From: a virus
Taxonomy: Duplodnaviria; Heunggongvirae; Uroviricota; Caudoviricetes
Virus record (IMG/VR): IMGVR_UViG_2851955134_000003
Coordinates: 1 to 41,806 of that record
Strand: one strand, 5' to 3'
DNA: 41,806 nucleotides
The first letter of the stretch is position 1. The number at the start of each line of letters is the position of its first letter. Shown here in pieces: positions 9,004-29,445 of the stretch. Both the position numbers and the translations under genes were made by a program. The notes under the pieces were generated by a model that was given only the letters and a program-made list of their open reading frames with translations, ran no database searches and was not told the DNA's origin.

Positions 9004-9015
9004 GTGACATGTCAC
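9004..9015. repeat. Palindrome GTGACATGTCAC, copy 1 of 3 (14-mer CGTGACATGTCACA on the minus strand)
   Basis: Perfect 12-bp palindrome next to hairpin GGCCGC-gaaa-GCGGCC; identical 14-mers at 27215-27228 and 29433-29446. Confidence 0.6.
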
Positions 9016-9029
9016 GATAGTTCCTTTTT

Positions 9030-9287
9030 GCACATCCCTGTGCCTCCGTTCTGTCAGAAGAACCCTGCCTTGTCATTGATGTACTCTGCGTGAGTCTGGA
9101 TATCACGCAGGCATTTGCTCACACCGACGATGTAGCAGAACATGGTGGTCAGTTCCGCCGCCGCGCCCGATACGTCGTGCCCGTCTTCCTGTAACTGGTT
9201 TAGCAGATTCATCAGCAGTGAGTTCTCCGTCAGGCCGAGAACACCAGACGGCGAGTGAATCAGGCTGCGGTAGCCGGGCTTCAGCGG
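9030..9287 (-). repeat. Right copy of the ~258-bp inverted repeat (3' end of the second ant gene)
   Basis: Reverse complement matches 7303-7560. Confidence 0.8.
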
Positions 9288-9998
9288 ATAACCATAACAT
9301 TTTGTCTGTGTTTTAATTGCCTCACGAAGCGCATCTAACATCTTGACTGCCACTTCATCATTCTCTGATGCAGATCCAGCAGGGAGATACTCCCCTTCAA
9401 GCGGAACCCGAGCAACAAGAGACAACGCTTCGGCGAATTGATCTTCATCAATTTCTTTGTACGAACAGCCAAAATGAGATTTCAGTGACGACCACATGGT
9501 GATCATCGCCTTAGCCTGTTTTTCTTTTGGCAGAGACTGACCGCGACTCATGACGAGTTGTTTAATGGCTTCCTGCTGTTCAGTGGTTATTTTACCCGGC
9601 AACGCCTTTTTAGCTTTGCGTGGGTTAACCACATGGCCTTTAGTCCAGTACTCGTAGAGCACATCGTCACACTCTTCCTGATACTGGATTACCTTGTCGC
9701 GGATTTCAGGACGGACTTTGTTAGGGCTGATGGTTTGCAACCAGCCAGCAAGTTTGCGAAGTGCCAAACAAATAATCTCACGGCGCTGTTCATCCCCAGG
9801 AAGCTGCATTGTGATTTTCACAATGCAGGTTTTAAACCGCTGCTTCATTTTCGTAAACTGTGAAGCCCAATCCATACCCATTCCCTCAACGATAGGCTTC
9901 ATTGGTGTGTACGGTTCGCCGTTGTGATTGACAACATAAAGTTCTACGCCGTGGAATGGCACGTTGATAGTAGATACCGCTGTTGCTATACTCGTCAT
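9054..9998 (-). CDS. Antirepressor Ant (AntA-type N-terminal domain plus shared C-terminal domain)
   Basis: 314 aa; N-terminal FHGVELYVV.NGEPYTPMKPIVEGMGMDW pattern as in phage antirepressors; C-terminal 80 aa shared with the Bro-N Ant; follows an Arc-like gene as in P22 immI. Confidence 0.75.
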   Translation of the reverse strand: MTSIATAVSTINVPFHGVELYVVNHNGEPYTPMKPIVEGMGMDWASQFTKMKQRFKTCIVKITMQLPGDEQRREIICLALRKLAGWLQTISPNKVRPEIRDKVIQYQEECDDVLYEYWTKGHVVNPRKAKKALPGKITTEQQEAIKQLVMSRGQSLPKEKQAKAMITMWSSLKSHFGCSYKEIDEDQFAEALSLVARVPLEGEYLPAGSASENDEVAVKMLDALREAIKTQTKCYGYPLKPGYRSLIHSPSGVLGLTENSLLMNLLNQLQEDGHDVSGAAAELTTMFCYIVGVSKCLRDIQTHAEYINDKAGFF

Positions 9999-10070
9999 GT
10001 CGTTAATTCCTATACGTAGTTTTACGATACTGAAGCCCTGACGGTCTGGCCACCGTTGGGCTTCGCTGTT

Positions 10071-10238
10071 TTATGCCACGCTATTCTTCTCACCAGTGAG
10101 TCCATACACTTTCCTCAGCTGATAGATAATCTCTGTATTGAACTTTCGGCATTCTTTTTCGCCATTTCTTTCAATAGCTAACTTCACATCGTCCGGAAAA
10201 CGAACTCGTCGTTGACACATCTCTTTTGCTTTTTGCAT
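10071..10238 (-). CDS. Arc-like ribbon-helix-helix repressor
   Basis: 55 aa from ATG 10238 (RBS AGGAG 7 nt upstream); RVRFPDDVKLAIERNGEKECRKFNTEIIYQL resembles P22 Arc (NLRWPREVLDLVRKVAEENGRSVNSEIYQRV); directly upstream of ant. Confidence 0.7.
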   Translation of the reverse strand: MQKAKEMCQRRVRFPDDVKLAIERNGEKECRKFNTEIIYQLRKVYGLTGEKNSVA

Positions 10239-10253
10239 TTCATATCTCCTTAG

Positions 10254-10266
10254 CCCCACCGTGGGG
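10254..10266. promoter_or_regulatory. Candidate Mnt/Arc operator CCCCAC-C-GTGGGG in the divergent arc-mnt intergenic region
   Basis: 13-bp palindrome with core CCAC(C/G)GTGG, similar to the core of the P22 Mnt operator as I recall it; lies between divergent RHH genes. Confidence 0.45.
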
Positions 10267-10358
10267 CAAAACAATTGTCACACCGTGCGTCATTGATGTC
10301 AAGCACACGGTGAGGCATACTTCAATCATTGCAAGTAACTCAATATTTGGTGAAGAAC

Positions 10359-27211: not shown

Positions 27212-27215
27212 CGCC

Positions 27216-27227
27216 GTGACATGTCAC
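27216..27227. repeat. Palindrome GTGACATGTCAC, copy 2 of 3
   Basis: Five bp after the stop of the cargo ORF and directly before a terminator hairpin. Confidence 0.6.
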
Positions 27228-27232
27228 AATCA

Positions 27233-27256
27233 GCCCGCCGATTCGCGGGCTTTTTT
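27233..27256 (+). terminator. Rho-independent terminator of the plus-strand cargo ORF
   Basis: GCCCGC-cgattc-GCGGGC followed by TTTTTT. Confidence 0.75.
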
Positions 27257-28730
27257 ATGCAAAAGGATCATAGTCTGTGATGGCTTTGCCTTGCTGGTTC
27301 TGCTGCCCAGGAATTCGCAGACGCTTCGACACAGGGAAAGCAAACGTCAGCAGTAGCGCATCGCCTTTACCCGGCGAACGCCCAAGCCGCTCCTTGATAT
27401 CTTCCTTCGGTTCGATAACGATTTTACCGTCCACACGAACTTTGTACTCTGCTGCCGACAGGTCGTCCGCTGTTTCCTGGTCATCCAGCATGCCGCCGAG
27501 CCTCAGCCATGTCTTGCATGAGTTGAACATCTCCCCACGCTTGTTGAGCATCTGCGGGTCAGTAGACGCGCCACCGAACGGAACAAGTTGCCATGTACGA
27601 CCCCAGCCGTCACCGATTGACTTCAGACCAGTTCCGTAACCGAAGTCGATGAACACTGCGTCAGCCTGGTACTGGTCTTCAAAGTCAGCGATACGCTTCG
27701 CCATAATCAGATCGTCAGTGGTCTTGTTGCCAGTCCACAGCACCTTACTGTGCAGCCCCTGCCGCAGGTATATCACAGCGTCATCAACGCCTGAGTATGC
27801 CGGGTCAACGCCGATTATCACCGGAGCATGTGCAACCTGCGCAGCGGTTACCACCCGTTTCATTGCCTCGTCAGTAAGACCGGTAGGGATAAACTGCAAT
27901 TCAGATGCATCAGGGAATATGCCGCGCACACGGATTTTAACGAAGTCGCTATCTTCCCCGTAGTCATCAACCCATTTCTGCAACTGCTGTTTGTTAGTGC
28001 CTTCCACCGTCCGGCTGTCAATCTGCGCAGTTTTCCAGCGGTGTTTATATTTGCGGAAACATTCGCGGAAACGCCCGGTGTTACGTGTAGGGTTTCCGAA
28101 CGCTACCCAGATAATCTCAGTGTCTTCGTCCGTAAGCGCACCCTCAGCAACTTCCCACACCAGATCCGCAATGTTCGACGCTTCATCGAATACCACGATG
28201 ATGCGTTTGCGCTCGTTGTGTAGTCCGGCGAACGCCTCAGTGTTGTGCTCAGACCAGGGGATTGCGTCAGCTCGCCACCGCTTGTCGTGCCCAGGGTCAT
28301 TGCTGTACATCGCGGTAGCGGTACAGGTAAACCAGTCTTTCGTGATAGCAAGGTTCGACCACTTGATAATTTCCGGCCAGGTCTTCGTTCGTAGCTGGTT
28401 GTCGGTGTTGGCGGTCACCACAACCTTACAATCCTCGCAAGTGGACATGCCCCAGTTGATCAGCATTGAGATGAATGCGGATTTACCAATACCGTGACCC
28501 GAAGCGCGTGCCAGCATAAGCGGCTGATAGCGCGTCTCTGGATTCTGCAGGTGATCACGTATCTCTCGGAACGCATCAGCCTGCCACTGACGTGGACCGG
28601 TGGCATGTGCCAGTTCAGTCCCATCTTCCCCCCACGGGAACGCATAGAGGGCATAGCCAAGCGGATCGTGAGTGAACCCTGCAATATCCTCGATTAACTG
28701 CTCTTCAGGAGATAACGCTGTATCTGTCAC
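27255..28730 (-). CDS. Terminase large subunit
   Basis: 491 aa with Walker A-like ASGHGIGKS, ATPase and nuclease-type acidic motifs; overlaps the small-subunit gene. Confidence 0.85.
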   Translation of the reverse strand: MTDTALSPEEQLIEDIAGFTHDPLGYALYAFPWGEDGTELAHATGPRQWQADAFREIRDHLQNPETRYQPLMLARASGHGIGKSAFISMLINWGMSTCEDCKVVVTANTDNQLRTKTWPEIIKWSNLAITKDWFTCTATAMYSNDPGHDKRWRADAIPWSEHNTEAFAGLHNERKRIIVVFDEASNIADLVWEVAEGALTDEDTEIIWVAFGNPTRNTGRFRECFRKYKHRWKTAQIDSRTVEGTNKQQLQKWVDDYGEDSDFVKIRVRGIFPDASELQFIPTGLTDEAMKRVVTAAQVAHAPVIIGVDPAYSGVDDAVIYLRQGLHSKVLWTGNKTTDDLIMAKRIADFEDQYQADAVFIDFGYGTGLKSIGDGWGRTWQLVPFGGASTDPQMLNKRGEMFNSCKTWLRLGGMLDDQETADDLSAAEYKVRVDGKIVIEPKEDIKERLGRSPGKGDALLLTFAFPVSKRLRIPGQQNQQGKAITDYDPFA

Positions 28731-29323
28731 TGATTACCATCCTGACGTTCTTTGAGTCGCTTCCTGGCTGCTGCTATGCGATCAGCAATTGTCACATTCA
28801 CATTAACATCCAGACGTTCTTTGAATGCGTTGACATCAACATGCTTACCAATCAGCTCAAGGTTCTTCACCTTGTCAGGCCATTTAATTTTTTTGAGGAT
28901 TGTCTCTATTGAATCCTCGTTCATGTTCATGATGGTCGATGACAGATCAAAGCCACTAAGCGTAGTGCGCCAGATTTTCGGCCACTCACGGATTGGTTTA
29001 AGGCTCCCATCGTCGTTGAGGATGTCGATCACGTCCATCTGGTCGATCTCCACCAGGCGCATGAGAACGTAATCAGCACTGACACGCATTCGTTTGTTGC
29101 GCTCCTCCATCAACTCGGCAATCCGTTTCTGAATGCGTTCATCGCGCATCATGACACTGGCTTTAACTGCCGCTGTATTTGGGGAGAATCCTGCGTTAAT
29201 CGCAGCCTGAGTCTGGTTTTCAGGCGTTTTGATGTATGACTGGCAATAAGCCTCCTGCATTGCTGTGAGCGGCTTAAATTGCGTTGATTTGCGTTTATAG
29301 GTTTTAGGTTCAGCAGGCATCAT
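28727..29323 (-). CDS. Terminase small subunit
   Basis: Directly upstream of the large subunit; helix-turn-helix-like N-terminal region; probable start at the tandem ATGs 29323/29320 (the ORF-track start at 29401 is TTG). Confidence 0.65.
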   Translation of the reverse strand: MMPAEPKTYKRKSTQFKPLTAMQEAYCQSYIKTPENQTQAAINAGFSPNTAAVKASVMMRDERIQKRIAELMEERNKRMRVSADYVLMRLVEIDQMDVIDILNDDGSLKPIREWPKIWRTTLSGFDLSSTIMNMNEDSIETILKKIKWPDKVKNLELIGKHVDVNAFKERLDVNVNVTIADRIAAARKRLKERQDGNQ

Positions 29324-29433
29324 AACCACCGTGGTAATTGTTACCGTTGTGGTAATAATACCATGCAAAATAAAGCCGCCATAGTTGGCGGCAGTATTCA
29401 AAATCCATCAAATTCATCATGCATAATCTACTC

Positions 29434-29445
29434 GTGACATGTCAC
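29434..29445. repeat. Palindrome GTGACATGTCAC, copy 3 of 3
   Basis: Overlaps the stop codon of the Cys-rich ORF just upstream of the terminase genes. Confidence 0.6.

Follow-up and report, generated by a model that had tools for sequence, protein, structure and literature searches.

What does a short palindrome do that recurs, letter for letter, at three widely separated places in a phage genome? The question is raised by a 41,806-nucleotide stretch of DNA (referred to here as the window; IMG/VR record IMGVR_UViG_2851955134_000003, positions 1 to 41,806), which is a nearly complete Uetakevirus (epsilon15/phiV10-like) prophage of E. coli. Its late region shows 97-98% identity to PAS61, phiV10, TL-2011b and others. 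The 14-mer CGTGACATGTCACA is present in exactly three copies, at 27215-27228 and 29433-29446 on the plus strand and at 9003-9016 on the minus strand. The likely partner of this motif is a Cys-rich gene (29442..29783, minus strand) whose stop codon lies inside one of the copies, a pairing absent from the initial annotation of this DNA. With moderate confidence, the palindromes are taken to be cognate binding sites of the phage's own ribbon-helix-helix (RHH)/Cys-cluster protein, encoded by this gene; that confidence applies to the explanation as a whole, including the guess that the occupied sites insulate transcription units from one another. We infer both the binding of the protein to the palindromes and its functional consequence.

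Copies of the palindrome in the window

The core of the 14-mer, GTGACATGTCAC, is a perfect 12-bp palindrome, while the outer C...A pair is asymmetric. The initial annotation held that three exact copies are far beyond chance, and the counts bear this out. GTGAC-N2-GTCAC is seen three times in the window, against 0.036 (~0.04) occurrences expected from base composition. When up to two mismatches are allowed there are seven matches, against a mean of 0.27 in 100 dinucleotide-preserving shuffles of the window, none of which (0/100) reached seven.

The copies are designated sites a, b and c. Each lies at the 3' end of a transcription unit and adjoins a terminator hairpin, in agreement with what had been noted from the letters alone. 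Site a (29433..29446, core 29434-29445) overlaps the TGA stop of the Cys-rich gene, is located ~40 nt ahead of the early-right terminator and stands upstream of the terS operators and terS. Site b (27215..27228) lies between the terL stop, with its hairpin, and the stop of a convergent cargo open reading frame (ORF; 26789..27211, plus strand), 4 nt past that stop and 4 nt ahead of the terminator hairpin at 27232-27251. Site c (9003..9016) is directly 5' of a bidirectional terminator (9003-8986, minus strand), with the ant stop (9054) on its other side; the ant module there is an immI-like insertion in this window. Coordinates also agree with the earlier placing of one copy between the ant junction and a hairpin, of another after the cargo ORF and before its terminator, and of two copies on either side of the terminase genes, since sites a and b enclose terS and terL.

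A degenerate copy with one mismatch (core GTGACATGGCAC; 24125-24138, minus strand) is found within a Bbp19-like ORF (23893..24189, minus strand). It may be a weak fourth site or a coincidence of coding sequence. The same variant occurs in the Bbp19-like gene of phiV10 (at 5306) and 33 bp from a perfect site in a Yersinia P2-like phage (11675).

The palindrome accompanies the Cys-rich gene in divergent phages

Homologues of the protein encoded at 29442..29783 were found in 151 records of a phage collection, from phages of Escherichia, Salmonella, Klebsiella, Enterobacter, Citrobacter, Yersinia, Pectobacterium, Vibrio and Aeromonas. At least 10 lineages have both the gene and the palindromic site; the chance expectation per genome is ~0.04 sites and usually two or three are present. 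The pattern GTGAC-N2-GTCAC recurs at the end of the gene or close to it for homologues as distant as ~30% identity, whose phages are unrelated in packaging and lifestyle. In the myovirus ZF40, TGTGACATGTCACA begins one base (T) after the stop of gp22 (69% identity), and the genome has three sites (5125, 7622 and 14944). The TGA stop of gp46 (35%) of N15, a linear plasmid prophage, is inside CGTGACTGGTCACG, and N15 carries three copies of GTGACTGGTCAC (28550, 33237 and 39269). In Vibrio phage 10N.237 (36%), which has RepA and ParA annotations, the stop of the gene is inside GTGACAGGTCAC and a second site lies upstream of parA. Vibrio phage K303 (33%) has three GTGAC-N2-GTCAC sites, one of them 226 nt downstream of the gene and one 30 nt upstream of terS. 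Aeromonas phage 85AhydR10PP (~30%) has a variant, GTGTCCGGTCAC, 14 nt upstream of the gene and in three identical copies. The lambda-like phage Chlobot has one site, directly after the gene. In a Yersinia P2-like phage the homologue is the first gene of the cargo region that separates gene A from Q, and at the opposite end of this region are a perfect site and another with one mismatch.

Across these phages the half-sites are nearly invariant; the centre is lineage-specific, identical within a genome and co-varies with the protein. A centre of this kind is expected if the reader is a co-inherited phage protein and not a host factor. Most sites lie between genes or at their ends, with > 90% of each genome coding. 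The gene and its adjacent site appear to be inherited as one module, and additional sites elsewhere make up the two or three found in most genomes.

A scan of IMG/VR for the 14-mer pointed in the same direction. Among the matches listed, which comprise at least 128 motif occurrences in at least 120 stretches, 41 of 128 were beside a homologue of the 29442..29783 protein, and the terL end accounted for 12 and the ant/small-ORF junction for 15. Where the homologue has 47-67% identity, the 14-mer directly follows the gene; xis/int or an AlpA-like gene, and not terS, come next at several such loci. In bacterial genomes, six of the 120 stretches among the matches listed contain the gene family, and in four of the six (Serratia, Pseudescherichia and two others) the motif is at the gene end. 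Bacterial matches listed were otherwise single, scattered over all phyla and chance-like.

The remaining 59 listed IMG/VR occurrences are in unrelated contexts, and those inspected were of two kinds. Many encode the peptide R-D-M-S, so not every copy of the 14-mer is a protein-binding site. In one recurrent gene the 14-mer is fixed as the coding sequence of the N-terminus MRDMSQ, which is presumably that of a Q-type antiterminator. The others are arrays of GTCACG/CGTGAC half-sites in high-GC contigs, inside apparent replication-protein coding regions. These iteron arrays were set aside as unrelated; the 14-mer arises there as two abutting half-sites, probably of an origin-type repeat with no relation to the phage motif.

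The Yersinia case has a further feature. In vB_YenM_42.18 (8073-12561) the homologue starts the A-Q cargo region, a large gene with an Smc-like annotation comes next and the palindromes are at the far end. The A-Q region of P2-like phages is a hotspot for defence genes.

The initial annotation had proposed four possible roles for the motif. The first, a regulator binding site, is favoured by co-occurrence with the gene for an RHH protein in very divergent phages. The second, a packaging site, fared worse. It would make the palindrome a pac or cos sequence recognised or cleaved by terminase, and it draws on the enclosure of terS-terL by two copies, on the K303 site close to terS and on the ends of two GenBank records: that of phiV10 begins and ends inside site a, and that of Tyrion starts precisely at the dyad. 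In each case, however, the end of the record is set by the stop codon of the last gene, with which the phiV10 record closes exactly and which the Tyrion record overruns by 2 nt. This convention of annotation accounts for both records starting inside the motif. The Tyrion genome has in fact been reported as circularly permuted with terminal redundancy (PMC5754475). Moreover, N15, whose record annotates a 12-base single-stranded cohesive end, carries the same gene-motif pair, and in ZF40 and in the lambda-like and P2-like phages the site is far from the terminase genes. The pair spans terminases of the lambda, P2, ZF40 and Uetakevirus types, with no co-evolution with terminase. As phages with unrelated terminases share the motif, a role in packaging can be given almost no credence.

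A predicted ribbon-helix-helix protein with a Cys cluster

The gene proposed to encode the cognate binding protein (29442..29783, minus strand) specifies 112 amino acids from its ATG; the listed ORF begins one codon earlier, at TTG. Its product falls in phrog_536 ('transcriptional regulator') and in the family of epsilon15 gp49, phiV10 p55, N15 gp46 and ZF40 gp22. No Pfam or NCBIfam model matches the window protein, and only 157 relatives were found among 1.8 billion cluster representatives. In an alignment of 59 members, the N-terminus is a conserved basic helix (AERKxxQRxR); a strand-helix-helix core follows, then a long helix and a Cys cluster in which C79 and C82 are invariant and C99 nearly so. 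A confident structure model predicts an RHH DNA binder with a β-α-α fold. MatP-matS is among its best structural matches, with the longest aligned stretch. The AlphaFold2 single-sequence model had a pLDDT of 56, and Foldseek searches against PDB and BFVD returned nothing useful.

A mode of binding can be proposed. The protein would dimerise via its β-strands, with one dimer per palindrome. The two-stranded ribbon would read the variable centre of the site (CATG in the window); the β-strand sequence differs between lineages with different centres. The N-terminal basic helices may contact the invariant GTGAC/GTCAC half-sites.

Operator binders of the RHH class (CopG/Arc/Mnt/MetJ and the antitoxins MazE, TacA and ParD) have in common with the phage family the predicted β-α-α fold, small size and a palindromic target. 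Arc and Mnt of P22 are well-known examples from phages. These proteins bind as arrays of dimers at promoter sites that they repress, usually upstream of their own gene, whereas the sites of the phage family are single, at the 3' ends of genes or operons and scattered over the genome. The phage protein is also extended by an N-terminal basic helix and by a Cys-rich domain at the C-terminus, and Pfam RHH models barely detect it.

The C-terminal half recalls the DksA/TraR C4 zinc-finger proteins in its long helix, CxxC...C cluster and short helix. DksA and TraR bind in the secondary channel of RNA polymerase, and Orf73 of lambda is a phage member. The sole matches of this half to PDB sequences were weak but consistent (TraR, E 0.031; YbiI, E 0.056). 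Alignment to TraR by hhalign gave a probability of 39% (E 3e-4) over 58 columns, in which only three Cys align; the C4 finger of DksA/TraR is CxxC-x17-CxxC. There was no Pfam match for a TraR-like C-terminus and no match in structure searches, and the resemblance is a weak lead from sequence.

Centromere modules of the ParG/ParR/omega type also consist of a small RHH protein linked to, and inherited with, palindromic sites in cis. The second site of Vibrio phage 10N.237, upstream of parA, adds to this likeness. A ParA/ParM partner is, however, absent from the Uetakeviruses, ZF40 and the lambda-like and P2-like carriers, all of which integrate. Centromeres also consist of repeat arrays, whereas the phage sites are single 12-bp elements.

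Conservation among Uetakeviruses and the edges of variable cassettes

The 12-mer occupies the three corresponding intergenic positions in phiV10, Tyrion, epsilon15 and SPC32H, whose flanking sequences around the sites are ~76-83% identical to the window. Site a is at 39101 in phiV10 (one mismatch), 41755 in Tyrion, 39612 in epsilon15 and 38629 in SPC32H; site b is at 2262, 2702, 2142 and 2145, and site c at 19493, 20377, 19517 and 19634, respectively. Among 80 related IMG/VR records from E. coli, 79 have a complete site a region and in 77 of these the site is perfect.

The initial annotation had raised the question of whether the edges of variable cassettes coincide with the motif, and they do. 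The 80 relatives diverge immediately past sites a and b, with two contexts after a and at least eight cargo contexts after b. At site c, phiV10-type phages cease to be homologous to the window precisely at 9016. Positions 9017-11455 are a 2.4-kb P22 immI-like insertion relative to phiV10, common to the window and TL-2011b and situated between the end of the tail genes and site c. Its genes are ant (encoding a P22_AR_N domain), an Arc-like gene (10329..10790) and an ORF at 10833..11444, together with sar RNA. There is no motif at its opposite boundary (~11444-11456).

These boundaries are part of the case for recombination or mobility, in which the palindrome would be a crossover or insertion point (or, as first suggested, a homing target) through which phages exchange accessory cassettes and the Cys-rich gene. 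The occurrence of the gene-plus-site unit in many different genomic neighbourhoods also fits. The coincidence with cassette edges is real, but no recombinase or nuclease could be linked to the sites: neither the protein nor, with any consistency, its gene neighbourhood contains a recombinase, nuclease or HNH/HUH domain. At its opposite boundary the immI-like insertion is without the motif, syntenic site positions are stable across genera, and no cassette ends at the coding-region sites of N15 and ZF40. Any short conserved element would be expected to have mosaic junctions beside it, and we take the coincidence here to follow from exchangeable DNA on both sides of such an element. Recombination is quite unlikely to be the function of the palindrome.

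A near-copy of the palindrome is present over the end of the Rz gene, where the lysis unit ends beside attP, in SPC32H (26696, 11/12 positions) and epsilon15 (26618, 8/12). At the corresponding position in the window (~1255) there is only a GTGAC half-site.

Transcription units and a possible insulator

The units that end at the palindromes can be traced from a second motif. ATTACC-N5-GGTAAT, annotated as the repressor operator in epsilon15, has 13 matches in the window (up to two mismatches) against 1.2 expected, with operator-like matches at 6180-6196, 26176-26192, 29322-29356, 32603-32681, 34972-34988 and 35683-35761. It differs from the palindrome, which was therefore rejected as a prophage repressor operator. 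Operator-like matches upstream of terS (29322-29356), the portal operon (26176-26192) and the tail-fibre gene (6180-6196) suggest that the late units are directly controlled by the prophage repressor. Delimited in this way, the three palindromes close three consecutive lytic units: early-right (of which the Cys-rich gene is the last gene), terS-terL (28727..29401 and 27255..28730) and portal-to-tail.

Each closing site has its own terminator. Downstream of site a, an intrinsic terminator hairpin (GCCGCCaactatGGCGGC followed by a T-run) is located at 29375..29392 (minus strand). The intrinsic terminator of the cargo ORF (27232..27251, plus strand) comes after site b, and the bidirectional hairpin abutting site c (8986..9003, minus strand) ends the structural unit, facing an ORF at 8747..8980 (plus strand). 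On the far side of site c is the antirepressor gene ant (9054..9998). Other RNA features of the window recognised by Rfam above the gathering score are isrK (6613-6689) and a C4 antisense RNA (6708-6795). The sar RNA (10000-10067) is antisense to the 5' end of ant. A tRNA (26514-26587, plus strand) in the cargo region after terL overlaps a listed ORF (26520..26771, minus strand).

With all three copies transcribed just ahead of terminator hairpins, the palindrome might instead work as a small RNA hairpin, with a part in termination or in the processing or stability of 3' ends. The hairpin that the motif itself can form has only 4 bp (-2.7 kcal/mol, z -1.1) and is no better than those of shuffled sequences. 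No Rfam family was found at the sites, and the orientation of the motif to transcription varies among copies. Invariant half-sites with lineage-specific and sometimes non-palindromic centres typify dimeric recognition of DNA by protein, making an RNA element highly improbable. A narrower possibility, that the motif is the stem of an intrinsic terminator, was dismissed as the terminator stems are separate hairpins adjoining it. A promoter was also considered: GTGACA resembles a -35 element on both strands, but a plausible -10 is present only at site a and not at b or c.

If the RHH protein does occupy the palindromes, it may form an orientation-independent barrier to transcription, or insulator, that reinforces the three terminators and keeps lytic units and convergent accessory genes from mutual read-through. 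This function is a best guess and a weak one. It is favoured because the Uetakevirus sites are at unit ends beside terminators and cargo hotspots and most sites in other phages are intergenic or at gene ends. The 11/12 copy at the end of the lysis unit of SPC32H is cited in its favour.

Several points weigh against this explanation. Binding upstream of the gene, and not at the stop codon, is the norm for RHH autoregulators. Pfam RHH models match marginally, in only one or two of the 59 aligned members (RHH_5, RepB-RCR_reg and RHH_1; E 0.013-0.07). Some sites of N15 and ZF40 are within coding regions, away from terminators; adjacency to terminators may therefore reflect where Uetakeviruses have non-coding space, which weakens the insulator part. 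At site b the hairpin comes before the motif in the late direction. Nothing relevant to the motif or the protein family (nor to Uetakevirus packaging) was found in the literature collection searched. Lastly, an architectural role like that of MatP, considered below, fits the small number of sites and their recurrent 2.2-2.7 kb spacing about as well.

Resemblance to matS and the question of an architectural role

The palindrome closely resembles matS, the site of MatP, which organises the Ter macrodomain in E. coli and its relatives. Consensus matS in E. coli is GTGACATTGTCAC, with the general form GTGAC[AG]N[TC]GTCAC (PMC8669397, PMC3603311), and the phage motif is this consensus less one central base. 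True matS is reported to be avoided by prophages (PMC3603311), and 3-nt-spaced matS is absent from all six genomes checked (the window, phiV10, Tyrion, epsilon15, N15 and ZF40).

Such a resemblance could mean that MatP or another enteric regulator binds the palindrome and that linkage to the phage gene is incidental. The host range of the phages coincides with the MatP-bearing clade. However, the absence of true matS and its avoidance in prophages do not agree with binding by MatP. The variant centres (CTGG in N15, CAGG/CACG in the Vibrio phages and those of GTGTCCGGTCAC in the Aeromonas phage) follow the lineage of the phage protein and not the host; N15 and the Uetakeviruses share E. coli as host and yet differ in centre. 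Nor is the spacing suited to CRP. The CRP consensus is TGTGA-N6-TCACA, with a spacer of 6 nt, whereas that in the window is 4 nt (TGTGA-CATG-TCAC), and a CRP site was rejected. A host factor is very unlikely to be the reader.

More weight is due to an architectural role for the phage protein itself. It would bridge or mark distant sites as MatP does, folding phage DNA or displacing complexes of the structural maintenance of chromosomes (SMC) type such as MukBEF, with no direct role in transcription. In addition to the one-base difference from matS and the appearance of MatP-matS among the top structural matches, most genomes have a small fixed number of sites (two or three) and some sites are inside coding regions. 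The hosts seen (Enterobacterales, Vibrio and Aeromonas) are all in what we take to be the MatP/MukBEF-bearing group. One pair of sites is also 2.2-2.7 kb apart in four lineages.

The pairs concerned are at 27216/29434 in the window (2218 bp), 5125/7622 in ZF40 (2497 bp), and 33227/35942 (2715 bp) and 44302/46954 (2652 bp) in two further phages. These four lineages are otherwise unrelated, and the spacing may reflect chance or a favoured size of loop. The N15 sites are 4.7 and 6.0 kb apart.

Against an architectural role, homology to MatP is undetectable in sequence: the family profile against E. coli MatP (sequence checked against PDB 4d8j) gave E 0.24 and a probability of 0.25% in hhalign. 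MatP consists of a four-helix bundle, RHH and a C-terminal coiled coil, whereas the model of the phage protein lacks bundle and coiled coil and has a Cys cluster. As sequence homology is undetectable and the other domains of MatP are missing from the model, the protein is not called a MatP homologue. The site has 12 bp and a 2-nt spacer, in contrast to 13 bp and 3 nt in matS. Unlike MatP, the protein is encoded by the phage and has one site at the stop codon of its own gene. Nothing links it to MukB or ZapB, and the strong bias of the sites to gene boundaries fits a transcriptional role at least equally. An architectural role is thus rather unlikely, and binding sites of the RHH/Cys-cluster protein at the ends of transcription units remain the preferred reading.

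Implications for phage biology

RHH proteins with palindromic sites are already known. What appears to be new is the architecture of the family, a site over the stop codon of its own gene, the small number and dispersal of the sites and their near-identity to matS. If the pairing is true, it would provide the first cognate DNA site for a widespread family labelled 'hypothetical' or 'transcriptional regulator'. The module would be an unusual one: its site overlaps its own stop codon, most genomes have two or three sites, and the site is a near-copy of matS, which prophages avoid.

More would be at stake if the MatP-like or TraR-like readings were true. Temperate phages of MatP/MukBEF-bearing γ-proteobacteria would then encode a MatP-like system with a private matS one base shorter at two or three genome positions, folding their DNA or shielding it from host SMC-type complexes, or would tether a TraR-like binder of the RNA polymerase secondary channel to defined places on the DNA; this is unlikely. 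The pairing itself would explain why the variable cargo junctions of phiV10-like prophages align with a fixed 12-mer. Such prophages are common in pathogenic E. coli and phiV10 is in use as a reporter phage, and the pairing would be of use in their annotation and engineering.

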